64,000 nt of DNA from Bacteroidia bacterium (lineage in GTDB: Bacteria; Bacteroidota; Bacteroidia; 2-12-FULL-35-15): positions 3,999-67,998 of the forward strand of contig JAVHPE010000126.1 in NCBI GenBank assembly GCA_036170475.1. The letters are read 5' to 3'. The translations under genes and the position numbers were made by a program. A model generated the notes under the pieces. The model had not been told where the DNA came from, ran no database searches, and saw only the letters and a program-made list of their open reading frames with translations. This document shows, one piece after another, positions 4,635 to 58,677 of this stretch (position 1 is the stretch's first letter; every line of letters starts with the position of its first letter).

Positions 4635-7268
4635 TTATTTTACTTTTTCCTTTTTAATTTTTTTATCCGATTCAATAGGATTTCGAAAAACAAATTCCTT
4701 GTTAAATAAATCCAAGACAATCTGCGAATTTTTCTGAACCTTGCCTGCTAAAATTTGTTTTGAAAGTTCATTCAATACACGCTTCTGCATAACCCGTTTG
4801 ATAGGTCTTGCGCCAAATTGAGGATCATAACCAAGTTGAGCTAACCAATCAATAGCGTCAGGTGTAGCAGTAATATAAATGTCATTTTCTTCCAGCATTT
4901 TAGCAACTCCATTGAATTGCAGTTCAACAATATGATGCACATCCTTCCTGTTAAGAGGAGTAAACATAATGGTTTCATCAATTCTATTTAAAAATTCAGG
5001 GCGCAAAGTTTTCTTCAATAGTTCGAATACTTCGATTTTTGTCCTGGCCATTATTTCATCTTTATTTTTTTCATTCATCTTTTCAAAATTTTCTTGAATA
5101 AGATGCGATCCCATATTAGATGTCATTATGATGATGGTGTTTTTAAAATTCACGATACGTCCTTTGTTATCGGTTAATCGTCCATCATCCAGCACTTGAA
5201 GCAATATATTAAATACATCAGGATGTGCTTTTTCTATTTCATCAAGCAGAACAACACTGTATGGTTTTCTGCGAACTGCTTCGGTTAACTGCCCGCCTTC
5301 TTCATAACCAACATACCCTGGAGGAGCTCCAACCAAGCGACTCACAGAGTGTCGCTCCTGATATTCACTCATATCAATGCGGGTCATACTATTTTCATTG
5401 TTAAATAAAAATTCAGCTAATGCCTTTGCTAACTCTGTTTTCCCAACACCTGTTGTACCAAGAAAAATGAATGAACCAATAGGTCGTTTTGTATCCTGTA
5501 ACCCGGCGCGACTTCTACGAACCGCATCACTGATAGCTTCTATGGCTTCATTTTGTCCTACCACACGTTTATGTAATTCATCTTCGAGATGCAGTAATTT
5601 TTCACGTTCACTTTGTAACATTCTGGAAACAGGAATACCAGTCCAGCTGGCAATAACACTGGCAATATCTTCACTATCCACTTCCTCCTTTATCATCTGT
5701 GAGCCGCTTTCTTTCATAAGGGCTAATTTATTTTCAAACACTTTCAATTCTTTTTCGGCTTCCTGCATTTTCCCATAACGTATCTCGGCAACTTTACCAT
5801 AATCCCCGCTACGTTCAGCTTGTTCAGCTTCAAATTTTAAATTTTCAATTTTTTCCTTCACTTTTTGAATGCCATCCACCACATCTTTTTCGCCCTGCCA
5901 TTTGGCCCGCAAATCGGTACGTTGATCAGCCAATTCAGCAATTTCTTTATTCAAATCTTCCAATTTTTTCTTATCATTCTCACGTTTTATTGCTTCACGT
6001 TCAATTTCCAGCTGCCGAATTTTACGTTCCAGGACATCCAATTCAATTGGCATAGAGTTGATTTGCATTCGTAATTTTGATGCTGCTTCATCCATTAAAT
6101 CAATGGCTTTATCCGGAAGGAAACGATCATTTATATAACGTTGCGAAAGTTCAACAGCAGAAATAATAGCTTCATCTTTAATACGTACTTTATGATGAGC
6201 TTCATATTTTTCTTTGATACCGCGCAAAATGGAAATAGCATCTTCGGCACTTGGTTCGTCAACCATCACCTTTTGAAAACGTCTTTCAAGTGCTTTATCC
6301 TTTTCAAAATACTTTTGAAACTCACTTAATGTTGTTGCACCAATGGCACGTAATTCGCCACGTGCCAAAGCTGGTTTAAGAATGTTTGCAGCATCCATGG
6401 CACCTTCACCTCCGCCAGCACCAACAAGCGTATGAATTTCATCAATGAATAAAATTATTTCTCCTTCTGCTCCAATTACCTCTTTAACTACTGATTTTAA
6501 ACGCTCTTCAAACTCTCCTTTATATTTTGCACCGGCAATTAATGCGCCCATATCCAATGAAAATATTTGTTTGGATTTTAAATTTTCAGGAACATCACCA
6601 TTAACGATGCGATGCGCCAACCCCTCAGCGATAGCGGTTTTACCAACACCCGGTTCACCAACTAAAATAGGGTTGTTTTTGGTTCTTCGAGATAATATTT
6701 GCAAAACTCTTCTTATCTCTTCATCCCTGCCAATGACAGGATCCAGCTTTCCTTTTTTTGCCTGCTCATTGAGATTAATGGCAAATTTGTTGAGAGAATT
6801 GTATGTATCTTCCGCGGTTTGACTGGTTACCTTAGCTCCTTTTCGGAGTTCAGTAATGGCAGTTTTCAGGTCTTTTTCATTAACACCATTATCTTTAAGC
6901 AATTGTGAGATAGTATCCTTTGTAGAAAGAATAGCAAGCAATAAATGTTCAATAGAAACATATTCATCACCAAATTCTTTCAAATAAGTAGATGCCTTTG
7001 AAATAGCCTGGTTGGCACTGTTAGATAAAAAAGGCTGGCCACCGGAAACTTTCGGATATCCTTCAACAATTTTATCTAAAGCCAAAGAAAACATCTGAGT
7101 GTTTACATTTAGTTTCTTAAGAATAAAGGGGGTTACGTTTTCATCTACCTCCAGAATACCTTTTAAAATATGCCCGTTTTCGATGTATTGTTGCCCGTTA
7201 ACTGTAGCAATCTGCATGGCATGCTGAACAGCTTCCTGCGATTTTATTGTAAAGTTATTTAGATTCAT
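4635..7268 (-). CDS. clpB: ATP-dependent chaperone ClpB
   Basis: MNLNNFTIKSQEAVQHAMQIATVNGQQYIENGHIL is the Clp N-domain. Two AAA+ modules are present (GEPGVGKTAIAEGLA and LGTTGVGKTELAKALA), separated by a long coiled-coil middle domain, with a sensor-2 GARPIKR motif. Start moved to the second in-frame ATG (MNLNN...), which matches ClpB N-termini. Confidence 0.95.
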   Translation of the reverse strand: MNLNNFTIKSQEAVQHAMQIATVNGQQYIENGHILKGILEVDENVTPFILKKLNVNTQMFSLALDKIVEGYPKVSGGQPFLSNSANQAISKASTYLKEFGDEYVSIEHLLLAILSTKDTISQLLKDNGVNEKDLKTAITELRKGAKVTSQTAEDTYNSLNKFAINLNEQAKKGKLDPVIGRDEEIRRVLQILSRRTKNNPILVGEPGVGKTAIAEGLAHRIVNGDVPENLKSKQIFSLDMGALIAGAKYKGEFEERLKSVVKEVIGAEGEIILFIDEIHTLVGAGGGEGAMDAANILKPALARGELRAIGATTLSEFQKYFEKDKALERRFQKVMVDEPSAEDAISILRGIKEKYEAHHKVRIKDEAIISAVELSQRYINDRFLPDKAIDLMDEAASKLRMQINSMPIELDVLERKIRQLEIEREAIKRENDKKKLEDLNKEIAELADQRTDLRAKWQGEKDVVDGIQKVKEKIENLKFEAEQAERSGDYGKVAEIRYGKMQEAEKELKVFENKLALMKESGSQMIKEEVDSEDIASVIASWTGIPVSRMLQSEREKLLHLEDELHKRVVGQNEAIEAISDAVRRSRAGLQDTKRPIGSFIFLGTTGVGKTELAKALAEFLFNNENSMTRIDMSEYQERHSVSRLVGAPPGYVGYEEGGQLTEAVRRKPYSVVLLDEIEKAHPDVFNILLQVLDDGRLTDNKGRIVNFKNTIIIMTSNMGSHLIQENFEKMNEKNKDEIMARTKIEVFELLKKTLRPEFLNRIDETIMFTPLNRKDVHHIVELQFNGVAKMLEENDIYITATPDAIDWLAQLGYDPQFGARPIKRVMQKRVLNELSKQILAGKVQKNSQIVLDLFNKEFVFRNPIESDKKIKKEKVK

Positions 7269-7322: not shown

Positions 7323-7358
7323 TTGGTGATATTGTTAAATTGCATATTGTAAAATTGC

Positions 7359-7787
7359 TTAATTGATTATTCCTTTGCTAAATTTTATTTTTTCAATTTT
7401 ATTTTTTCTTTCTAATGAAAATGTTTTTTCAGTTTGATCTATATAATTGAAAATTATTAATACTTTTTGATACAATTTTTTTGCTTTCTCAATTTCCTTT
7501 TTTTGTTCAAACAGTTCTGCTGTGGCATAAATTATATCCCCCACATAACTTAAATGGGCAGAACTTAGTTTTTTTTCCTTTACTAATGTTTCAATAAAAT
7601 TTTCCAACGGAAGAGAAAATATTTTTTCAATATCTAAATCAAATGAATTTTTAAGAGTTTCCTGCAACAATGTAATACCTTCATTTACCATTCCCCTTTC
7701 CTTCAATTTCAGCATATCAGAAATCACTTTACCAATAGTGCGTCCCAATTCTTCCAGTTGGCGTTTTATAAAATCACGTTGTATCAT
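7359..7787 (-). CDS. hypothetical protein
   Basis: 142-aa ORF with a reasonable codon pattern and no family recognised. Confidence 0.4.
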   Translation of the reverse strand: MIQRDFIKRQLEELGRTIGKVISDMLKLKERGMVNEGITLLQETLKNSFDLDIEKIFSLPLENFIETLVKEKKLSSAHLSYVGDIIYATAELFEQKKEIEKAKKLYQKVLIIFNYIDQTEKTFSLERKNKIEKIKFSKGIIN

Positions 7788-11141: not shown

Positions 11142-13688
11142 TTATTTCTTAATAAATTTTCTTGATACTATTCCTTTTGAAGTAGCAATTCTTATCATAT
11201 ATATTCCGGGCTTAATATTTCTGATGTCAATACTATTTTTTGCAATCTGTGAATCCAATATCTTTTCACCCATCACATTAAAAATTTCTATCTTATTTTT
11301 TTCAAAATTTGCAAATTGTAAACCTGAAATGGTTAATTGATCATCTGCAGGATTTGGATAGATAAAAACAGCATTATTTTTGCCTGGTTCATTAATACTG
11401 GTAATTGAACTCAGATCCGATTCCCAGATCCCTCTTCCATAAGTGGCTGCCCTTAATTTACCTGCGGAGTATTGAATTTCCAGTTCATTAATAATTACAT
11501 TTGGCAAACCTGTGTTATAATAGGACCAATCACTCATAGAACTGTTTTTGTAATAAACGCCAAAATCCGTTCCAATGTAGAGTCCATCAATACTTCCGTT
11601 TTGGTAAACAATACAATTTACAGGAATATTTGGAAGCGTACCTGAAACATTTATCCATGTTAATCCACCGTCAATTGAATTATAAACCTTGTCACCGTTT
11701 GAGTATCCGGATAACGTTATCCAAACATTATCAGGGTCTGCAGAATTAATTGCAATGCCAGTAATTGCAGCATTATTAACGGGTAGATTTTGAGTAATCG
11801 TATTCCAACTTGTTCCTCCATTGATAGTTCTGAAAATATTTCCAAAGCTGGCAACGTATATATAATCCGTATTGGAAGGAGCAATGGCAACAGAATTCAA
11901 AGTAGCGCCACCATCAATATTGTTTGAAATTGCATTCCATGAATCTCCACCATCATCAGATTTGTAAACATCCTGGTATCCTGCAAAAAGGATTTGAGGG
12001 TTTGTCGGATGCATTACCATAGGAGTAACCCATGCACCAGTAACTCCTGGAGGAGTAATGTCTAAGGAGAAGGTAGTTCCACCATCTGTGGATTTTATAA
12101 AATCTCCTTCGTAAACAGAGGCATAAACAATATAACTGTCAGTATAATCAATAAAACATTCCATTCCGTCACCTTTAAACACATTATCAGAATAAATTCC
12201 ATAGATACGGTCGGTACCATTATCCTGTGCCCCTCCATAAATAAGATTCGGATCAAGTGCTGAACAACCAATGCGATAATATTGTTTTATATCCAATCCA
12301 TTACTTAAATCATACCAGCTAGTTCCCCCGTCCATAGTTTTAAAAATCCCACCATCATTACATGAAAATATAGTAGAACCATCCCCACCTGGCAAAAAAG
12401 TAATAAAATGGTTATCGGCATGTACATAATCTGTTGCATTCCAAGGATACCATTCTGATGTAGTATTCCAAGTGCTTCCACCATCCGCGCTTTTAGCAAG
12501 AATCACTCCCCCTAAATAAATCACATTTTCATCCAGAGGAGAAACTGCAAACGCCCTACCATAATAATCCAAATCAGTCACTAAAGCACTCGGAGAACTG
12601 CCAATATTCCAGGACGCTCCACAGTCTGTTGATTTGTAAAAATCTCCTCCGGTGCACCATAAATAAATAACATTTGAATTGGCGGGAGTAACTTCAATAG
12701 AAGCTCTTCCACCAGCGCAAAAGGTTGCGGAAAGAAGAAACCATGTGACTCCACCATCATTTGATCGATAAAGTCCTCCGTAACTGGATGCAAAAACAAT
12801 ATTTGGATTTGCTGTATTAAATTCAAGATCGTAAAAATCTCCGACCTGCACATTCGTCAATGTTATGGCTGCGTCACTTGATCTGTAAATACCTGTATTT
12901 GTTGCAACAATTAGTATATTTGGATTTACAGGATTAATAATTACTCTTTGAATCAAGTTACTCTGGGCTTGTGTATAATTTAAAGTGGTAGGACTCCAGG
13001 ATGTTCCCCCATCAATTGACTTCATAAGTCCAGCCCTATAATTACCACCAAAGAAACCCGGTATTCCACCCCAAAAACCATATTTATCTCCAGTAGCAAT
13101 GTACATAATATTAGTATTAAGGGGATTAATTATAATTTCAGAAATACTCAAAGCGGGAAGCAGATCCGTATTGGAAGACCATGTGTTACCACCATCAGTA
13201 GATTTCCAAAGTCCTCCGCATACTGAACCAATAAATAATGTGCTGGAATTATTTGGATCGAAGGCCATACAATTAATTCGTCCGGCACCACCACCTCCAC
13301 CGGGAACAATTTGCGGACCTAAAAATGTCCAGTTTGCAGACCTTTCTCCCAAAGATTTTTCAGTTGAATGTTCCGCTTTATATTTGAAATATTCTTTAAC
13401 AAGAATTTCGGGATCAGAAAAATTTCCTGAAGGATAAACACGTTGTTCTGTAAACCACTCCCAACGCTTAAATTGCTGCCATTCACCATCTTTATCCTTT
13501 CCTTTTTTATCTATTACGTTAGCAGATTTTTTTTTCCAATATTCATTGAATATTTTTTGAATATCATAAAAATTTGGTTTGGTGTTGATAATGGAATCGG
13601 TTCCGGCCTTCTTTAGCCATGATTGTGCATTTATTGAAGAAACTGAAACAATAAATGAAAAAAGGATACAAAATAAAGATTTTTTCAT
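11142..13688 (-). CDS. BNR/Asp-box repeat beta-propeller protein (GH74/sialidase-like) with T9SS C-terminal sorting domain
   Basis: Signal peptide present. At least eight S-x-D-G-G-x-T/S-W repeats (STDGGNTW, SIDGGTSW, SNDGGVTW, STDCGASW, SADGGSTW, TMDGGTSW, STDGGTTF, SDDGGDSW, TINGGTSW, SIDGGLTW). The C-terminus FIYPNPADDQLTI...GIYMIRIATSKGIVSRKFIKK is a Por/T9SS CTD. Confidence 0.75.
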   Translation of the reverse strand: MKKSLFCILFSFIVSVSSINAQSWLKKAGTDSIINTKPNFYDIQKIFNEYWKKKSANVIDKKGKDKDGEWQQFKRWEWFTEQRVYPSGNFSDPEILVKEYFKYKAEHSTEKSLGERSANWTFLGPQIVPGGGGGAGRINCMAFDPNNSSTLFIGSVCGGLWKSTDGGNTWSSNTDLLPALSISEIIINPLNTNIMYIATGDKYGFWGGIPGFFGGNYRAGLMKSIDGGTSWSPTTLNYTQAQSNLIQRVIINPVNPNILIVATNTGIYRSSDAAITLTNVQVGDFYDLEFNTANPNIVFASSYGGLYRSNDGGVTWFLLSATFCAGGRASIEVTPANSNVIYLWCTGGDFYKSTDCGASWNIGSSPSALVTDLDYYGRAFAVSPLDENVIYLGGVILAKSADGGSTWNTTSEWYPWNATDYVHADNHFITFLPGGDGSTIFSCNDGGIFKTMDGGTSWYDLSNGLDIKQYYRIGCSALDPNLIYGGAQDNGTDRIYGIYSDNVFKGDGMECFIDYTDSYIVYASVYEGDFIKSTDGGTTFSLDITPPGVTGAWVTPMVMHPTNPQILFAGYQDVYKSDDGGDSWNAISNNIDGGATLNSVAIAPSNTDYIYVASFGNIFRTINGGTSWNTITQNLPVNNAAITGIAINSADPDNVWITLSGYSNGDKVYNSIDGGLTWINVSGTLPNIPVNCIVYQNGSIDGLYIGTDFGVYYKNSSMSDWSYYNTGLPNVIINELEIQYSAGKLRAATYGRGIWESDLSSITSINEPGKNNAVFIYPNPADDQLTISGLQFANFEKNKIEIFNVMGEKILDSQIAKNSIDIRNIKPGIYMIRIATSKGIVSRKFIKK

Positions 13689-15541: not shown

Positions 15542-15617
15542 ATTTGAAATTGTATTATTATGAAATTTTTTAATGAATTAAGACAATGCCGTTAAGTTAT
15601 TGAACAATATTTACCCA

Positions 15618-15692
15618 ACGCACAGTCTTCGACAAGTTCTGACTGATCATTGTGCGATGTCACACTGAGCTTGTCGAAGTGTGCGAAGGCAT
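15618..15692. repeat. REP-like palindromic intergenic repeat, family 1, copy 1
   Basis: CACAGTCTTCGACAAGTTCTGACTGA...TCACACTGAGCTTGTCGAAGTGTGCG, an imperfect palindrome with about 26-nt arms. Related copies at 21166-21242 and 58188-58232. Confidence 0.7.
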
Positions 15693-15735
15693 TATAAAAT
15701 TTGTTATTGATATTTTATAAATCTTTATAAAAAAA

Positions 15736-17213: not shown

Positions 17214-17361
17214 GTGGTTTAGTTTAGAGTTAAAAGTTTAGAGTTAAGAGTTTTTGTTTTGTGTTAAAAAAGTTTTGAGCTATATAGTTTTGAGTTAAAA
17301 GTGTAAATAGTTTTGAGTTAAAAGTTTAGAGTTATGAGTTTTTGTAGTGTGTTAAAAAAGT
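17214..17361. repeat. tandem duplication (about 45-bp units) at the left end of the four-helix-bundle cassette
   Basis: AGTTTAGAGTTAAGAGTTTTTGTTTTGTGTTAAAAAAGTTTTGAGC, then AGTTTAGAGTTATGAGTTTTTGTAGTGTGTTAAAAAAGTTTAGAGTT, with extra GAGTTAAAAGT units. Confidence 0.6.
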
Positions 17362-17752
17362 TTAGAGTTGTTTTGTTAAATATTTTTCTTTTGTTGTAAG
17401 TATAATACTGCTCAGAATTTTCATAAGTTCATTGCAATTATTTATTAAATTAATGTATTCTTCTTTATCTATGAAACCACTATCCGAAAGTAAATTAAGC
17501 CAATATGCCGTTTCTCTTGCTTCTTTTAATGAGATACTCATTTTGTGAATAAAATCTCTTTTTGATTCCCCTGCTAAAGCTTCGTTAATATTGGCTCCTA
17601 TGGAAGTGCCAGAACGTAAAACTTGTTTTGATAAAATAAATTCTCTCTTTTCAGACGATAAATTTTTGTAAAGTTTAATTATTAATAACGCAAAAGCATA
17701 AGATTTCCTTCCAACAATACTATCATTCTGTTTTAATAAACTCATAACTCTA
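17327..17752. mobile_element. inverted-repeat-bounded four-helix-bundle gene cassette
   Basis: TAGAGTTATGAGTTT at 17327-17341 and its exact reverse complement AAACTCATAACTCTA at 17738-17752. The ORF start codon lies inside the right arm. Confidence 0.5.
17362..17745 (-). CDS. four-helix-bundle protein (TIGR02436 / 23S rRNA intervening-sequence protein family)
   Basis: 127 aa. LSKQVLRSGTSIGANINEALAGESKRDFIHKMSISLKEARETAYWL is the family signature. Confidence 0.8.
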   Translation of the reverse strand: MSLLKQNDSIVGRKSYAFALLIIKLYKNLSSEKREFILSKQVLRSGTSIGANINEALAGESKRDFIHKMSISLKEARETAYWLNLLSDSGFIDKEEYINLINNCNELMKILSSIILTTKEKYLTKQL

Positions 17753-17763
17753 CTCTCTTAATT

Positions 17764-19143
17764 TTAAACTAAAGTAAATTTATTTCTTCTGATAAATTTA
17801 CCATATCCTTTTTCGACAAGTAATTTATTATCATCCACAGCTACATTACCTCTCAGGATTATTGTTTTGCATTTACCTGTTAATTGCCATCCTTCATAAC
17901 CGGAATAATCACAATTCATATGATGAGTTTTTGCAGAAATGGTATGCTTTTCATTCGGATCTAAAATTACTATATCAGCATCAGAACCTACAGCAATAGT
18001 ACCTTTCTGAGGATACATTCCAAATATTTTGGCTGCATTTGTGGAACTTACCTCAACAAATTTGTTCAGACTGATTTTATTTTTAATTACTCCTTCGGAG
18101 AATAATAATTCCATCCTGTTTTCAATTCCCGGAGCCCCATTCGGGATTTTTGTGAAATCGGTTGAACCCGCTTTCTTTTGTTCCCATGTGAATGGGCAAT
18201 GATCTGTCGCAACCACTTGCACAGTTCCCTGATTGATTCCTGCCCATAGACTTGTCTGATCTTTTTTCTCCCGTATCGGTGGACTCATCACCCATTTTGC
18301 AGATTCAAACCCTTTGTCATAAACAGAAGCATCGAGGACCAAATATTGAATACAGGTTTCAACAAAAATTTTCTGATTTCTTTTAGCAGCATCTCGGATG
18401 TGATTAAGCGCATCCTCGCTGGTCAGGTGTACAACATAAGATGGGACTCCTGTATGATACGCCATATCAGAAAAACGGCTTGTGGCTTCGCTTTCAGTAA
18501 TTTCGGGCTGAGATAAATAATGAAACAGAGGAGAAAGTTTCCCTTCCGATTTATGCTTCGCTACTAAGTAATCAATCATATCGCCATTGGTAGCATGAGT
18601 AGTTAATAATCCACCCTGTTTTTTTACTTCATGCATCAAGCCAATCATTTGCTTATCGTCAATCATTAAAGCACCTTTATAAGCCATGAATGTTTTGAAA
18701 GAAGTAATACCCTCTTTTTCAATCATGTCTTTTATTTCAGATCTGATTTCTTCATTAAAATCTGTTACGGACATGTGAAAAGAATAATCTCCAACAGCAT
18801 TTCCATCAGCACGACCCTTCCATTCATTTAATGCTGCGTATAAGGATTTCCCTTGTTTTTGGATCACAAAATCTATTACCATGGTAGTTCCTCCAAAAAG
18901 GGCTGCACGTGTTCCCGTTTCGTAATTATCACTGGAATAAGTCCCCATGAAGGGCATATCCAGATGAACATGAGGATCGATACCACCGGGTATTACCAAT
19001 TTGTTTTTTGCATCTATAACTATGTCCGCATTAACTGAAAGGTTGAGACCGATAAGTTTTACTTTTTCCTTTTCAATATAAATATCTGCAACATAATCAT
19101 CAGCAGCAGTTATAACTCTCCCATTTTTTATTAGAATTGACAT
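17764..19143 (-). CDS. dihydropyrimidinase / D-hydantoinase (cyclic amidohydrolase)
   Basis: ILIKNGRVITA...VIPGGIDPHVHLDMPFMGT...FKTFMAYKGALM, with metal-binding H-x-H, a carbamylated-Lys region and VVATDHCPF. Start set at MSILIKNG. Confidence 0.85.
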   Translation of the reverse strand: MSILIKNGRVITAADDYVADIYIEKEKVKLIGLNLSVNADIVIDAKNKLVIPGGIDPHVHLDMPFMGTYSSDNYETGTRAALFGGTTMVIDFVIQKQGKSLYAALNEWKGRADGNAVGDYSFHMSVTDFNEEIRSEIKDMIEKEGITSFKTFMAYKGALMIDDKQMIGLMHEVKKQGGLLTTHATNGDMIDYLVAKHKSEGKLSPLFHYLSQPEITESEATSRFSDMAYHTGVPSYVVHLTSEDALNHIRDAAKRNQKIFVETCIQYLVLDASVYDKGFESAKWVMSPPIREKKDQTSLWAGINQGTVQVVATDHCPFTWEQKKAGSTDFTKIPNGAPGIENRMELLFSEGVIKNKISLNKFVEVSSTNAAKIFGMYPQKGTIAVGSDADIVILDPNEKHTISAKTHHMNCDYSGYEGWQLTGKCKTIILRGNVAVDDNKLLVEKGYGKFIRRNKFTLV

Positions 19144-21042: not shown

Positions 21043-21130
21043 CTGACAGGGTTTCAAACCCTGTTAGAGGTATTTAACGAGTTACGAAATCCGAACAAAA
21101 CCCCTAACAGGGTTTGGAACCCTGTCAGGG
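21043..21130. repeat. REP-like palindromic repeat, family 2, copy 1
   Basis: CTGACAGGGTTTCAAACCCTGTTAG ... CTAACAGGGTTTGGAACCCTGTCAG: two inverted hairpins (CAGGG-tttcaaa-CCCTG) separated by about 45 nt. Second copy at 56003-56090. Confidence 0.7.
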
Positions 21131-21165
21131 AGCGCACAATGTCGTTTAGTTAAGGAAAAACATCA

Positions 21166-21242
21166 GCCCACAGTCTTCGACAAGCTCTGACTGACCGCGC
21201 GCTGGTCATATTGAGCCTGTCGAAATATGTGCGATAGCATCT
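21166..21242. repeat. REP-like palindromic repeat, family 1, copy 2
   Basis: CACAGTCTTCGACAAGCTCTGACTGA...TGAGCCTGTCGAAATATGTGCGATAGCATC. Confidence 0.7.
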
Positions 21243-21269
21243 TAACTAAACAGCATTGAGGGAGCGCAA

Positions 21270-45639: not shown

Positions 45640-46119
45640 GTCCCCCTTGTGAGTTGGACTGTGGGATTGCGAAGGGGGCAGGGGGATGAAAATCTGTTAT
45701 TCATGAACAACCATTACAATAAAAAGTTAAAATCCTTCGCTCAAAGCAATAGAAATTTTTCAACTAAAGCGGAAATAAGAATTTGGTGTGAATTATTGAG
45801 AAATAAAAAAATGTTAGGGTTCCCGTTTTTACGTCAACGACCAATTGAGAATTATATAGCTGATTTTATGTGTAAAGAACTAAATTTGATAATTGAAATT
45901 GATGGCTATTCTCATCAATTCAAATATGAGGAAGATATTGAAAGAGATGACAGACTAAAACAATTGGGATTTCATGTTCTGCGTTTTACAGATGACGAAA
46001 TAACAAAACATATTACAAATGTTGAACGTGCTATTATTCAATGGATAGATAATAAAGAAAAACAATTTCATCCCCCTGCCCCCTTCACTGACGCACATTC
46101 AATCACACAAGGGGGACAA
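45640..46119. mobile_element. DUF559 endonuclease gene bounded by about 49-bp imperfect terminal inverted repeats
   Basis: Left GTCCCCCTTGTGAG-n17-GAAGGGGGCAGGGGGATG at 45640-45688. Right (reverse complement) GTCCCCCTTGTGTG-n17-GAAGGGGGCAGGGGGATG at 46069-46119. Confidence 0.55.
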
Positions 46120-46131
46120 AAAAACAGATAA
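45703..46131 (+). CDS. DUF559 (Vsr-like) endonuclease domain protein
   Basis: NRNFSTKAEIRIWCELLRNKKMLGFPFLRQRPIENYIADFMCKELNLIIEIDGYSH...RDDRLKQLGFHVLRF is the DUF559 signature. Start set at MNNHY. Confidence 0.8.
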   Translation: MNNHYNKKLKSFAQSNRNFSTKAEIRIWCELLRNKKMLGFPFLRQRPIENYIADFMCKELNLIIEIDGYSHQFKYEEDIERDDRLKQLGFHVLRFTDDEITKHITNVERAIIQWIDNKEKQFHPPAPFTDAHSITQGGQKNR

Positions 46132-49105: not shown

Positions 49106-49381
49106 TTATTTTTTCTTTTTACCACCTTTTTTTGCGGCAGCTTCAGCTTCAGCAGCTTTTGCAGCTTCTTCAGCAGCGGTAGCATCAGCAGCAGCTTTAG
49201 CAGCAGCTTCAGCAGCGGCAGCCTCTTCAGCAGCTTTAGCGGCGGCAGCAGCAGCGGCTTCTACTTGTGCTATTGAATCTTTTGTAGCTTTTTCTTTAGC
49301 AGCTTTTTCTTCAGCGCTTGGTCCACAAGCAGCGAATGTAAACACACCTGCTAGGGCAACTAATGTAAATACTTTTTTCAT
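49106..49381 (-). CDS. Ala/Lys/Glu-rich small lipoprotein (paralog 1)
   Basis: MKKVFTLVALAGVFTFAACG lipobox, then an AEEKAAKEKA...AAAKAAEEAAAAEAAAKAA helical low-complexity stretch and a KKGGKKKK tail. Confidence 0.65.
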   Translation of the reverse strand: MKKVFTLVALAGVFTFAACGPSAEEKAAKEKATKDSIAQVEAAAAAAAKAAEEAAAAEAAAKAAADATAAEEAAKAAEAEAAAKKGGKKKK

Positions 49382-49473
49382 TTTGTTTTGTTTGTGATTT
49401 TAATTAAAATTTGCACAAAGCTACATTTATTTTTTTATTTCAAACAACTATTTTAAAAAAAATTCTTCAAGAC

Positions 49474-49511
49474 ATAAAAAAAAGTCCCGCAAAATTGCAG
49501 GACTTTTTTTA
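49474..49511. terminator. bidirectional rho-independent terminator
   Basis: A8-AGTCCCGC-aaaatt-GCAGGACT-T7. Lies 3' of the minus-strand Ala-rich lipoprotein paralog 2. Confidence 0.65.
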
Positions 49512-49526
49512 ACTCAGAATAAGGTA

Positions 49527-49847
49527 TTAACCTCTTCCTTGACCAGGTTTAACCGGTGCTGGCTCAGCCTTTTTAACGGGCTTAGCTTTTCCACCTTTTT
49601 TTGCAGCTTTTGCAGCTTCTTCAGCAGCAGCAGCATCAGCAGCAGCTTTAGCAGCAGCTTCAGCAGCAGCAACTTCGGCAGCTTTTGCAGCTTCAGCAGC
49701 AGCAGCAGCTTGAGCAGCAGCAGCTTCTACAACAGCAATTGAATCTTGTTTTGCTTTTTCTTTAGCGGCTATTTCTTCAGCGCTTGGTCCGCATGCATAG
49801 AATGAAAACATTCCTGCTACGGCAACTAATGTAAGTACTTTTTTCAT
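49527..49847 (-). CDS. Ala/Lys/Glu-rich small lipoprotein (paralog 2)
   Basis: MKKVLTLVAVAGMFSFYACGPSAEEIAAKEKAKQDSIAVVEAAAAQAAAAAEAAKAAE... About 70% identical to paralog 1 over the N-terminal 40 aa. Confidence 0.65.
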   Translation of the reverse strand: MKKVLTLVAVAGMFSFYACGPSAEEIAAKEKAKQDSIAVVEAAAAQAAAAAEAAKAAEVAAAEAAAKAAADAAAAEEAAKAAKKGGKAKPVKKAEPAPVKPGQGRG

Positions 49848-49991
49848 ATTGTTTTAATTGTTTATTTGGTTAACCGGAGACAAAAGTAATATTTTTATTT
49901 AACAAAAAACAAATTTATTTTGATAAAAAAAAACAGTACATTTGTATCCGAAAAAATTAATCATTCCAACTAACAAATAAAAATTAAACAA

Positions 49992-52375: not shown

Positions 52376-52808
52376 TTCTTTTTTCTTGAAAAAAAAGAAA
52401 CAGGGCAAATGTGTAGTACACATTTGAGCCAGCATGTGTATGGCTTTCAAGAACAAACGATTCCTCCCCACAAGCAACACAACATCGCGTTTGTTCAGTC
52501 CTCACGCGCATTTCCATAAATTTATTTTTGCACAAAATGAAATTATTAACGGTGCGGCTGATGTCCACGAAAAGTGCGAACCGCAAGTTTCGTGGCGATG
52601 TTGCGTAAGGCATTTGCGGGTAAAACGAAGGCTTGTGGTTGGTTTTCGTGGTCTCCTTTTCTTTGTTTCTTTCTTTTGGAGAAACAAAAGAAAGAAAAAT
52701 CCTTTCACGAAGCTGCATTGCAAGTCAATTGGCGATATTTCTATAATCGAACTCAGGTTAAGGGTAGTGAATTTATAAAAGCCCTTCATTAATGGAAGGG
52801 CTTTTTTG
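52376..52808 (+). ncRNA. candidate structured non-coding element A (paralog of 57886-58110): sRNA or MITE-like unit
   Basis: GC-rich island with conserved blocks GGTGCGGCTGATGTC (52551), GGTTGGTTTTCGTGGTCTC (52640) and the hairpin CTTTCTTTTG-gagaaa-CAAAAGAAAG (52669-52694). A similar hairpin TTCTTTTTTC-ttg-AAAAAAAAGAA lies at 52376-52402. Mutually exclusive pairings are possible: CCACGAAAAG with CAAGTTTCGTGG or with GGTTTTCGTGG. A rho-independent terminator follows at 52779-52808. Overlapping ORFs on both strands are non-protein-like. Confidence 0.3.
52779..52808 (+). terminator. rho-independent terminator
   Basis: GCCCTTC-attaatg-GAAGGGC followed by T6. Confidence 0.65.
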
Positions 52809-54854: not shown

Positions 54855-54900
54855 GTCCCCCTTGTGAGAAAGCAAGTGTGGAGGAGAAGGGGGGTGCGAA
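54855..54900. repeat. solo copy of the DUF559-cassette terminal repeat
   Basis: GTCCCCCTTGTGAG-n18-GAAGGGGGGTGCGAAG has the same architecture as the 45640-45688 repeat, with no endonuclease ORF nearby. Confidence 0.5.
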
Positions 54901-54972
54901 GATTTTGTGTGTTGTTGGGGGATGTTTTTTTTGATTCGTAAATTCGTTATAATACCATTTATTAATATATAT

Positions 54973-55066
54973 TAGTCCAATCTAAAAAAACAACCCGCTT
55001 TCTCGACTTCGCTCGAAATGGCCCGTGCGAAGTCGAGAAAGCGGGTGGCATAACTGAATTGGACTA
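54973..55066. repeat. large nested palindrome
   Basis: Outer arms TAGTCCAAT / ATTGGACTA. Inner perfect 19-bp arms CCCGCTTTCTCGACTTCGC / GCGAAGTCGAGAAAGCGGG around a 14-nt loop. Confidence 0.7.
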
Positions 55067-55114
55067 TTTTATAAGTATAATTGGTATAATTCATTATCCA
55101 AAACCAAAAATATT

Positions 55115-55987: not shown

Positions 55988-56002
55988 AAATTATTGACTT
56001 AC

Positions 56003-56090
56003 CCTGCCAGGGTTTCAAACCCTGTTAGGGTTAGAGTTAGGGTTAGGGTTTAAAAGTTCTGTTTCAATCTGACAGGGTGTTTGAAAGTTT
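56003..56090. repeat. REP-like palindromic repeat, family 2, copy 2, with embedded TTAGGG-like triplet
   Basis: CCAGGGTTTCAAACCCTGTTAGGGTTAGAGTTAGGGTTAGGGTTT...CTGACAGGGTGTTTGAAAG. The second hairpin is degenerate. Confidence 0.65.
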
Positions 56091-56734: not shown

Positions 56735-57610
56735 CTACAAAACATTCAATAACTGTTCTTTAATTTTTTCCAATTCATCTTTCATTTGTACCACTAATTT
56801 TTGAATTCCCGCATCATTCGCTTTTGAACCAATTGTATTTATTTCGCGACCAATCTCCTGAGAAATAAAACCAAGTTTACGACCGCTGGCAGGCTCTTGT
56901 AAAGTATTCATAAAATAATCGAGATGGGTTTTTAATCGTAATTTTTCTTCCGTAATATCGAGCTTTTCAATATAATAAATCAATTCTTGCTCAAAACGGT
57001 TTTCATCTATTTTTTCTTTTTCAACGAGTTCGGCAATATTGTTTTTTATACGGGCTCTCACACTTTCAACTCTTGCGCTATCCATCCTTAAAACGTCAGC
57101 TAATAATCCGTAAATTATCCCAATGCGGGTTTGAAATTCCTTATCAAGTATTTTACCTTCATCTGAACGGAACTTTTGAAATGCATCTATTGCCTTATCA
57201 ATCGCTATTTTTACTTGCTCCCATTCTGCTTCATCTAATTCCACCACTTCTCTTTCGGCTTTCATTACATCCGGCATCTTTAACGCTAATGCCAATAAAT
57301 TTGAATTGCTCTCATTCATTTCATCAGCTAAAGCTTTCAACTCCTTATAATATGTTTTTATCAATGTTTTATTAATGGCAATCGGCAATGTTTCCTGAGT
57401 TGATTCGGTGTAAACCGATAAATCTATTTTACCACGTTCTATTTGTTTGGAAATATCGCTACGAAGTCCAAGTTCCTTTTCCTTGTATAAATAGGGTAAT
57501 CGCAAATTCAAATCCAAAGCCTTGCTGTTAAGTGAACGCACTTCAACTGTCACTTTTTTCCCTGGAATTTCAGTTACGGATTTTCCAAAACCGGTCATTG
57601 ATTTTATCAT
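56735..57610 (-). CDS. yicC: YicC/YloC-family stress-induced protein
   Basis: MIKSMTGFGKSVTEIPGKKVTVEVRSLNSKALDLNLRLP is the YicC N-domain, and the DUF1732 C-terminus ...FISQEIGREINTIGSKAND is present. Confidence 0.8.
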   Translation of the reverse strand: MIKSMTGFGKSVTEIPGKKVTVEVRSLNSKALDLNLRLPYLYKEKELGLRSDISKQIERGKIDLSVYTESTQETLPIAINKTLIKTYYKELKALADEMNESNSNLLALALKMPDVMKAEREVVELDEAEWEQVKIAIDKAIDAFQKFRSDEGKILDKEFQTRIGIIYGLLADVLRMDSARVESVRARIKNNIAELVEKEKIDENRFEQELIYYIEKLDITEEKLRLKTHLDYFMNTLQEPASGRKLGFISQEIGREINTIGSKANDAGIQKLVVQMKDELEKIKEQLLNVL

Positions 57611-57885
57611 ATATTTCTTTATTTGAAACAAATGTATGATTTTTTTATTTTACCATGCAGGTAACAAGCCTTGGGTGTACGACAAATATCCCTAACTATT
57701 TTTATTCCAAACCATACGGCAATGTCATTGAGTTATGGAACTTTCAAACATAAATGTCTCCCCAAGGTCTTCTACAGGCTTTGACTGAGTGCGCTAGGTC
57801 AGTCTGATTAAACAATTAAAAAAATTTAAAGCTCTTTGAAAATGACACAAAAAATTTTAAAATTACAGCAAACAAAAAGCATTTT

Positions 57886-58110
57886 TTCTTTTTGCTTGAT
57901 CAAAAAGAAACAAAAATTCAGTGGGGTGCGGCTGATGTCTCCCGCATAATGCGGGACGAACTGCAATTTTTTCAAGCCAAGTTTTGGCTGGTTTTGTGTG
58001 AAAGAAAAAATTGGTTTGGTTTTCGTGGTCTCTTTTTATTGCTGGCACACAATCTCGCTCATCCCGCCACAGGCGGGCTGCCGCTTTCTTTTGGAGAAGC
58101 AAAAGAAAGT
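57886..58110 (+). ncRNA. candidate structured non-coding element B (paralog of element A)
   Basis: 5' hairpin TTCTTTTTG-cttgat-CAAAAAGAA (57886-57910). Conserved blocks GGTGCGGCTGATGTC (57925), GGTTTGGTTTTCGTGGTCTC (58013), and 3' hairpin CTTTCTTTTG-gagaag-CAAAAGAAAG (58084-58109). Internal hairpins TCCCGCATAATGCGGGA and CCCGCCACAGGCGGG. Confidence 0.3.
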
Positions 58111-58187
58111 AAAATGTCCAATGAGTAAAAAAGTTATGTTTCATAAAAAAGTAATATTGTAAGTAATTGAAAAAAAATTAGCTACAT

Positions 58188-58232
58188 AGTGTGTCATTGG
58201 AAGCCTGTCGAAATATGTGCGATGGCTTCTTA
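58188..58232. repeat. REP-like repeat, family 1, half copy
   Basis: TCATTGGAAGCCTGTCGAAATATGTGCGATGGCTTCTTAA versus 21209-21247 TCATATTGAGCCTGTCGAAATATGTGCGATAGCATCTTAA. Confidence 0.6.
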
Positions 58233-58677
58233 AATTATGAGATTAGGGAAATTTGTCGTACACCCCAAGCCTTTGAACAGAAAATCTTAACGATAAGCCG
58301 GCATTTTAAAATAAAATTCATCTCAAATTTAATGAAACATTAAAACTTATTTTTCGTAGAATGTGTTCTAAAAAATTAACATCATTTAACAAAAAATGAT
58401 TGTATATGTTAAAATAAATGGTATATTGCGTAACGGTATTACATATTATCTTAAACAATCCCACAATAGTGGAGGATCAACTATAATATCCCATCAAAAT
58501 AAAAAAGTTTTTGCGAATTTTTTACTGATTAACAACAATAAGTGAGACAAAGAGATTGGAAATAATCTTTGATGATTGTCTATTATTCTTCTTTTTTAAT
58601 TTATTATTTTTTTACTAATCTGAATATAAACTGTGGGCTCATCTATAAAGCATACCGACTCTTAACTCAACCATATT

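Follow-up and report, generated by a model that had tools for sequence, protein, structure and literature searches.

The closest described system to the repeat reported here is that of the Ssn nucleases. In Neisseria, the repeat dRS3 is part of a 28-nt sequence, NTS (CGTCATTCCCGCGMAVGCGGGAATCYRG), and SsnA, a 94-aa protein with a single GIY-YIG domain, binds NTS only as single-stranded DNA (ssDNA) and cuts upstream of it, at a distance of a few nucleotides; cleavage is controlled by the three bases (GTC) that precede the NTS palindrome, SsnA is inactive on RNA, and the system keeps the recombination of incoming ssDNA in check (Chenal et al. 2025, PMC11893778). Described in that study as the first site-specific enzymes that cut only ssDNA, the Ssn nucleases have thousands of homologs, 42% of which are flanked on both sides by Ssn-related motifs (SRMs) in an SRM-ssn-SRM architecture; where a genome has more than 200 SRMs, an ssn gene is present in 81% of cases. 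Each homolog apparently has its own hairpin motif, and the pairs have been proposed as ssDNA tools (PMC11893778). Is there a system of this kind in Bacteroidota? Here we describe a palindromic repeat with three copies in a 64,000-nt stretch of contig JAVHPE010000126.1 from a Bacteroidia bacterium (the whole stretch is called the window below). Each copy is probably an inverted pair of SRM-class hairpins tied to an Ssn-like GIY-YIG nuclease, with copies 2 and 3 borne by miniature inverted-repeat transposable elements (MITEs).

Repetitive extragenic palindromes (REPs) offer further comparisons. The survey of Di Nocera et al. 2013 (PMC3733652) described CGTC/TGTC-tagged REPs, including Neisseria dRS3 and Rickettsia RPE-4/6, which 'apparently lack a dedicated transposase'. 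They have a CGTC/TGTC/CCTC tag, an 8-9-bp stem beginning with A/T, a 4-5-nt loop and a CCA tail, and their reported hosts include Chlorobi, entered there as 'Bacteroidetes/Chlorobi'. Classical REPs, with their doublets (REPINs) and bacterial interspersed mosaic elements (BIMEs), go with a REP-associated tyrosine transposase (RAYT) of the Y1 HUH type (Bertels & Rainey 2011; Nunvar 2010; Quentin 2018, PMC6006769). The first-pass annotation of the window had read the repeat as an element of this REP/BIME type. That reading is right on the architecture, since the copies are extragenic imperfect palindromes that occur in doublets and arrays, and probably wrong on the partner enzyme.

The repeat copies and their unit

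The shared repeat had been placed at 15618-15692, 21166-21242 and 58188-58232, and it was recovered there, with matching 26-nt left and 23-nt right arms where dinucleotide shuffles lead to an expectation of 0. The arms form hairpins as had been proposed, with copy 1 (z = -5.7) and copy 2 (z = -3.3) each folding into a long hairpin whichever strand is taken. The supposed half copy at 58188-58232 belongs to a full but decayed doublet: it is the right arm, and a repeat scan found the left arm at 57766-57789. The repeated element is also larger than first described, as copies 2 and 3 lie inside elements bounded by terminal inverted repeats (TIRs) and flanked by target-site duplications (TSDs):

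15584..15693, plus strand: whole element of copy 1, degenerate and MITE-like by comparison with class A/C copies; TSD not visible
15584-15601: left-TIR-like end of copy 1, CAATGCCGTTAAGTTATT
15621..15649, minus strand: left arm of copy 1, decayed unit; tag ATC instead of GTC, core GAAC instead of GAGC
15658..15683, plus strand: right arm of copy 1, intact unit TGTCACACTGAGCTTGTCGAAGTGTG
15688-15693: truncated right end of copy 1, GGCATT
21127..21136: left TSD of copy 2, AGGGAGCGCA, perfect 10 bp, directly abutting the TIR
21137..21258, plus strand: MITE of copy 2, 122 bp, with 18-bp TIRs CAATGTCGTTTAGTTAAG (21137-21154) and CTTAACTAAACAGCATTG (21241-21258)
21173..21196, minus strand: left arm of copy 2, intact unit GGTCAGTCAGAGCTTGTCGAAGAC
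21204..21229, plus strand: right arm of copy 2, intact unit GGTCATATTGAGCCTGTCGAAATATG
21259..21268: right TSD of copy 2, AGGGAGCGCA, directly abutting the TIR
57665..57672: left TSD of copy 3, CAAGCCTT, 8 bp
57673..58265, plus strand: MITE-like element of copy 3, 593 bp including an insertion, with 23-bp TIRs GGGTGTACGACAAATATCCCTAA (57673-57695) and TTAGGGAAATTTGTCGTACACCC (58243-58265)
57766..57789, minus strand: left arm of copy 3, decayed unit (GGTCTTCTACAGGCTTTGACTGAG on the plus strand), repeat family D9
57802..58192: nested insertion splitting copy 3, ~392 bp, directly after the right-arm GGTCA tag; GTCA is repeated at 58193-58196
58193..58222, plus strand: right arm of copy 3, decayed unit GTCATTGGAAGCCTGTCGAAATATGTGCGA, repeat family D15
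58266..58273: right TSD of copy 3, CAAGCCTT

By consensus, the only intact units in the window are those at 15658-15681 (plus), 21204-21227 (plus) and 21173-21196 (minus); tag and core are altered in the left arm of copy 1 and in both arms of copy 3. The metagenome-assembled genome (MAG) JAVHPR ('Bacteroidia bacterium WB02no9_35_13') is syntenic with the window at 84-87% nucleotide identity, and its locus L084 is orthologous to the copy 1 region. The element there is 88% identical, next to 83-84% for the neighbouring coding sequences, and its left arm is still intact (GGTCAGTCAGAGC). As a member of the first MITE type, copy 1 is older and partly decayed, and it has persisted at the orthologous site. 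The spacers beside it (15542-15583 and 15694-15735) are 100% identical to L084 (40/40 and 42/42) and may be regulatory sequence. A further unit of this class, likewise decayed (CATTTCGAGCGAAGTCGAGAAAG, minus strand, ~54998-55020), was seen inside a 142-nt near-perfect palindrome at 54949-55090, whose 67-nt arms are 76% complementary.

Each arm is a hairpin unit of ~24 nt. In the forward orientation it reads [T/G]GTC-A, four variable bases, GAG-C-YT-G-TCGA, and then the complement of the four bases. In a logo of 168 units, which is independent of the search pattern, the tag bases G, T, C and A are each 89-93% conserved; position -9 is T in 60% and G in 26% of the units, followed by G (89%), T (93%) and C (92%). 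The tag is unpaired, and pairing with it is not conserved in this logo. The stem behaves differently from the fixed core: among 95 units with distinct stems, 79.8% of the cells are paired and 137 cells are double changes, a level that 0 of 500 shuffles reach, and the covariation score is 0.50 compared with 0.06-0.16 in controls with slid partners. The 4-bp stem is maintained by compensatory change, that is, by selection for pairing. The pairing profile consists of the four well-paired variable base pairs and a weaker outer A-T pair (about half of the units), then GA/AG, one G-C pair and a 5-nt loop. From their sequence, the GAG…CGA flanks could form tandem G·A mismatches closed by the invariant G-C pair. 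In the window, the left arm is the reverse complement of the unit (stem CAGTC/GACTG) and the right arm is the forward unit (stem CATATT or CACACT); a doublet, with one arm reversed and the other forward, thus has a single forward unit per strand.

Is the repeat confined to this window? The first-pass annotation had allowed that only these three copies might exist, and this does not hold, as more than 100 loci from dozens of genomes were found. The degenerate 22-mer GTCTTCKACARGYTYTGACTGA matched at least 101 stretches of public genomes. Among the matches listed, the Bacteroidota hosts include Pedobacter, Aquimarina, Polaribacter, Flavobacterium, Aequorivita, Chitinophagaceae, Cyclobacteriaceae, Ohtaekwangia and Bacteroidales, and Ignavibacteriota are also present; some MAGs have many copies per genome. 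The units occur as singletons, as left-right doublets of the window type, as right-left pairs 15-30 nt apart (Ignavibacteriota and Flavobacteriia), and in tandem arrays whose units alternate in orientation (L075, L096, L060 and L092), with array periods of 26, ~105, ~117, ~128 and ~168 nt. Almost all classifiable sites (90 of 93) are intergenic. When each spacer is counted once, 45 are tandem, 18 convergent and 14 divergent, where 53, 10 and 14 are expected from the same loci (p = 0.02). This is a mild, ~1.8-fold convergent excess without avoidance of divergent spacers, and the positional bias proposed earlier is accordingly weak. Likewise, each copy had been said to sit at a 3' gene end in a convergent or tandem spacer. 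The spacer type is correct for copies 1 and 2, which are in tandem spacers; copy 3 is at no 3' gene end but in a divergent spacer, with the 5' end of a yicC-like gene on the minus strand (56735-57631) to one side and an open reading frame (ORF) of very large size on the plus strand (58678 to beyond 63999) to the other.

The GIY-YIG gene beside the units

Which enzyme belongs to these units? The earlier annotation had advised looking for a RAYT gene. In a regular-expression screen of six-frame translations, covering the repeat-seeded loci plus the window (784 kb around more than 100 copies), no ORF with the HUH…Y (Y1) motif was found. The GT[AG]G foot of classical REPs is not present in the 168-unit logo, the conserved foot being [T/G]GTC, and the published REPs of Bacteroidetes RAYT subclass 2.6 have no sequence match to the units. 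What the units bracket instead is a GIY-YIG nuclease gene. When 100 ORFs within 700 bp of a repeat were compared all against all by BLAST, a GIY-YIG pair was the only recurrent family. The protein is ~100 aa long with a single domain (Pfam PF01541), and its residues Y7, Y17 and E65 are invariant; the corresponding SsnA residues are Y6, Y17 and E64 (PMC11893778). The repeat-seeded loci contain five GIY-YIG genes, of which three are set among units: one between two arrays of a 26-nt unit (L033), one between an inverted unit pair (L083), and one inside alternating arrays (L060).

The linkage is found in larger samples too. For the L083 protein, 3057 homologs were obtained by database search, and 83 of the best 120 end in peptides encoded by the reverse unit (SSTSSD*, SSTGSD*, PSTSSG, ASTGSA, LRQAQHD, FDKLRMT…), while 9 of the best 120 start with a translation of the forward unit. 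For annotation, the units thus explain the common spurious tails (…SSTSSD, …LRQAQHD, …PSTSSG) on small GIY-YIG proteins in these phyla. An independent set of metagenome loci (80) was drawn with the GIY-YIG protein as the sole seed. Of 77 loci, 43 have a forward unit no more than 160 nt upstream and, again of 77, 46 have a reverse unit downstream, against a background of ~0.04 per flank; both are present in 35 of 74, which resembles the 42% published for Ssn. The inner loop type is usually equal on both sides within a locus, and in 11 of 39 loci the two 4-bp stems agree fully.

For the window organism, the gene is judged from its closest sequenced relative. In locus L107 of MAG JAVHPR, the GIY-YIG gene of protein P0006 (3001-3321) is bracketed by GGTCAGTCAGAGCCTGTCGAAGACTG … CACAGTCTTCGACAGGCTCTGACTGAC, units of the same type as the left arms in the window, and the left arm of copy 2 is near-identical to them. 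The gene lies between an lpdA-like gene and the ferrochelatase gene (hemH), as it does in L083 and L106. P0006 was likened to SsnA through a homolog that serves as a bridge, a 94-aa GIY-YIG protein of a Shinella plasmid (40% identity, E = 2e-14, hhalign 98%), whose gene is flanked on both sides by motifs fitting the published SRM pattern. Another homolog, 47% identical, is encoded on Sphingomonas parapaucimobilis plasmid unnamed4 (L193, ~1340-1860) between nrdR and an RNA methyltransferase gene, and it is flanked by GAG/CGA-class units GTTCAGGCTGAGCGAAGTCGAAGCC; the published SRM pattern has no match in this 3.2-kb stretch. Therefore the GAG/CGA class is also present in Alphaproteobacteria.

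By analogy with NTS and SsnA of Neisseria, an Ssn homolog, a GIY-YIG nuclease of ~100 aa with one domain, would recognise the unit as folded ssDNA and nick the DNA a few nucleotides before the GTC tag, on its upstream side. For a left-right doublet this predicts cut sites in the central spacer on both strands, because each strand carries one forward unit. Binding and cutting of the units by the nuclease might then affect recombination, horizontal transfer or genome dynamics in the window organism.

How close is the system to those already described? As in SRM/Ssn, the hairpin repeat is oriented, has the conserved xGTC-A tag on its upstream side and is present in many copies that are almost all intergenic, and a single-domain GIY-YIG gene of ~94-106 aa lies between inverted repeats. 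It differs in having a 4-bp variable stem, GAG/CGA and a G-C-closed loop where the published motifs have a GC-rich, perfect stem of 8-9 bp; in its Bacteroidota and Ignavibacteriota hosts, which are not discussed in the text of PMC11893778; and in that some copies are cargo of MITEs with TIRs and TSDs. The favoured reading places the units among the CGTC/TGTC-tagged REPs, a class for which the name SRM is now in use. Compared with the class description, they have the same unpaired terminal CGTC/TGTC tag and likewise form inverted dimers whose spacers are structured. Their stem begins with A and has 8 positions if GA/AG is counted, with a loop of 5 nt, whereas they have no CCA tail and the stem is not fully Watson-Crick. 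The REPIN/BIME-RAYT systems resemble it in their inverted doublets that form a long hairpin, in alternating arrays and in a nuclease gene flanked by its own repeats, here with lpdA-hemH synteny in three loci, but the fold is GIY-YIG rather than Y1 HUH and the foot is GTC rather than GTAG.

Several points weigh against the assignment to SRM/Ssn and should be noticed. The published SRM search pattern, HGTCWYN(0-2)YYVSBRHN(0-5)WNVSBRGN(0-2)RNCYNB, has 0 matches in the window and 2 in the 1.02 Mb of loci used for pattern scans (4 in shuffles), while the canonical NTS and the Shinella repeats do match it and the definition of the GAG/CGA class gives 606 matches against 1 in shuffles. The units have no conserved C after the palindrome, a base critical for Neisseria SsnA binding. 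There is no GIY-YIG gene in the window, and its presence in the window genome is judged from the relative. The linkage of gene and units could partly reflect co-inheritance of the lpdA-ssn-hemH locus rather than function, and the nearest PDB entries are the Slx1-like UPF0213 proteins 1zg2 and 1ywl. Despite these points, we regard the tie to an Ssn-like nuclease as the probable reading. A stronger form of it is that the GAG/CGA units make up a distinct, uncatalogued SRM class of Bacteroidota and Ignavibacteriota, with one alphaproteobacterial locus, that has its own Ssn clade and a new ssDNA specificity, is dispersed at least partly by MITEs and serves as landing sites for IS110-family elements; this we put forward tentatively, as slightly short of an even chance.

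Other nuclease genes near hairpin repeats were also seen. A second, more distant GIY-YIG paralog (~41-45% identity) occurs in MAG JAVHPR and one other MAG (L072 2455-2727 and L081 6538-6750). The hairpins on its two sides are of another class, TGTCATCCCGAG-[inner hairpin]-AGAGGGA, which suggests several nuclease-motif pairs per genome. In the window, a DUF559 gene (Vsr-like PD-(D/E)XK; 45640-46131) is flanked by 59-nt inverted hairpin repeats GTCCCCCTTGTGAG…GCGAAGGGGG, with a solo copy at 54855-54893. The layout is the same, a small nuclease bracketed by its own hairpin repeat, and the repeat is different. A 23S_rRNA_IVP (four-helix-bundle) gene (17362-17745, minus strand) is flanked by 34-nt inverted repeats (17308-17341 and 17738-17771) and preceded by two 70-nt direct repeats (17220-17289 and 17308-17377). 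As partners of the present units, the PDDEXK_3, DUF559 and 23S_rRNA_IVP genes of the window were rejected, as they are 1.5-9 kb from any unit; the latter two are further disfavoured by their own, different flanking repeats.

Carriage by MITEs and the rival explanations

There is a further question of concern, how did the copies reach their present sites? Copies 2 and 3 were inserted by TSD-generating MITE transposition, with two different TIR families. Among the 20 elements of the copy 2 family, perfect abutting 10-bp duplications are present in 4; one further element has a perfect 10-bp repeat offset by 1 nt, one has a 9-bp repeat, and several show 8-9 of 10 flank matches when counted by hand. 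In the control of mismatched flank pairs, the longest common string is 8 nt and 62% share no string of at least 4 nt. The copy 3 family comprises 5 elements with 8-bp duplications, and in L046 and L097 its TIRs enclose an unrelated hairpin cargo (8-bp duplication TCCTCATG). On the other hand, the core also occurs without these TIRs (L036, L065, L020 and L039), and therefore it is not merely MITE filler. As in bacterial MITEs in general, there are TIRs (18 and 23 bp), duplications (10 and 8 bp) and multi-copy families sharing TIRs; unlike in them, the cargo is itself a recognisable repeat class that is also present outside MITEs. Copies 2 and 3 were thus carried to their sites as cargo of two miniature transposons, by conventional cut-or-copy transposition. 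No TIR pair enclosing a transposase of its own, as an autonomous insertion sequence (IS) would have, was found among the fetched loci; the sole TIR interval containing an ORF holds an apparent IS110-family gene inserted into a MITE.

Insertions were seen at the units themselves as well. In Pedobacter sp. UYP30 (L011 5896-6921 and L057 7210-7998), a 341-aa ORF follows directly after the unit's …GGCTCTGACTGA and looks like an IS110-family transposase, as judged by eye. Its placement in the two loci suggests site-specific targeting of the unit. Published parallels to insertion beside the unit are the REP-targeting ISPpu9 and the recombinase target dRS3. The insertion that splits copy 3 holds a conserved, hairpin-rich core of ~190 nt (57926-58116, GTGCGGCTGA…CTTTCTTTTGGAGAAGCAAAAGAAAGTAAAATG), for which Rfam gave no match. 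Other Bacteroidota MAGs have this segment too; L009 contains it twice, both times within 800 bp (6566-6776 and 7333-7479), and it is also present in L083 (6286-6410). Its terminal hairpin is also found alone at 52669-52700 of the window. It could be a small RNA gene or another small mobile element.

Could the repeat be explained without an Ssn-like nuclease? One explanation is that the core is mere filler of IS-derived MITEs, spread solely by DDE-type transposition and without any role in recognition. The clear TIRs and the 10-bp and 8-bp duplications of copies 2 and 3 and their relatives speak for it, and one TIR family does carry other cargo (L046 and L097). However, units without these TIRs exist as singletons, right-left pairs and tandem arrays, the stem covaries while the core and the GTC tag stay fixed across phyla, and units bracket the GIY-YIG gene far above background, which makes this explanation unlikely. 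We consider it about equally improbable that the repeat acts mainly through RNA, either as a factor-independent terminator or by stabilising the 3' end of mRNA, a role suggested for certain REPs. The predicted hairpins are stable (-28 to -35 kcal/mol), copies 1 and 2 each follow a gene, there is a 1.8-fold enrichment of convergent spacers, and copy 1 was kept at its orthologous site. But units are found in both orientations relative to the upstream gene (32 vs 19), divergent spacers are as frequent as expected (14 observed, 14-18 expected), and there is no U-tract in the sequence. Rfam gave no credible family at gathering thresholds for the whole window, or at E up to 10 for the three repeat regions. 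A terminator does not need a conserved unpaired GTC tag and a strand-asymmetric core, and SsnA does not act on RNA.

The proposal of the first-pass annotation, a classical REP/REPIN mobilised by a RAYT, is the least probable and in our judgement very unlikely. It accounts for palindromic, extragenic units in doublets and arrays, and Bacteroidetes do possess RAYT subclasses 2.4 and 2.6 with atypical REPs. Yet the units have no GT[AG]G foot, no HUH…Y ORF was found in the 784 kb, the listed RAYT-associated REPs of Bacteroidetes are unrelated, and the bracketed gene encodes a GIY-YIG nuclease. Inverted SRM-class hairpins tied to an Ssn-like nuclease, in part carried by MITEs, therefore remain the explanation that we favour.

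What would this mean for such repeats? The MITE carriage, the cross-phylum GAG/CGA core and its being missed by the published pattern appear to be new in the searchable literature, in which no paper joined GIY-YIG with REP or REPIN terms and the repeat strings gave only chance primer matches. Since a motif class that crosses phyla was missed by the published pattern, the catalogue of Ssn motifs is probably incomplete, and a new class of ssDNA specificity may be available. Neither the 2013 REP survey nor the 2025 Ssn paper settled how such repeats spread. The clean TSDs are concrete evidence for one route of multiplication, as MITE cargo; if the stronger form of the reading is true, hitch-hiking on DDE-type MITEs would partly answer how 'transposase-less' REPs of the CGTC type spread.

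Other features of the window

The window is AT-rich (~34% GC) and encodes a type IX secretion system (T9SS) sorting domain (Por_Secre_tail), and Logan metagenome contigs match it. A search for tRNA and tmRNA genes found none, and a hammerhead-like reading of CUGA…GAA was ruled out by inspection, the CUGAnGA core being absent. Another palindromic repeat family (CTGACAGGGTTTCAAACCCTGTTAG…) lies at 21043-21133, directly upstream of copy 2, and again at 56002-56044, downstream of a diacylglycerol-kinase-like gene. A gene for an 848-aa BNR/Sortilin protein with a T9SS sorting domain is found at 11142-13688. It is absent from the otherwise syntenic L084, where 553 bp stand in place of ~3.1 kb and the PDDEXK_3 gene is kept. 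At 49113-49736, two adjacent ORFs with long 9-nt tandem repeats (GCAGC-rich) encode Ala/Lys-rich low-complexity proteins, and a 247-nt block is duplicated at 49161-49407 and 49627-49873.

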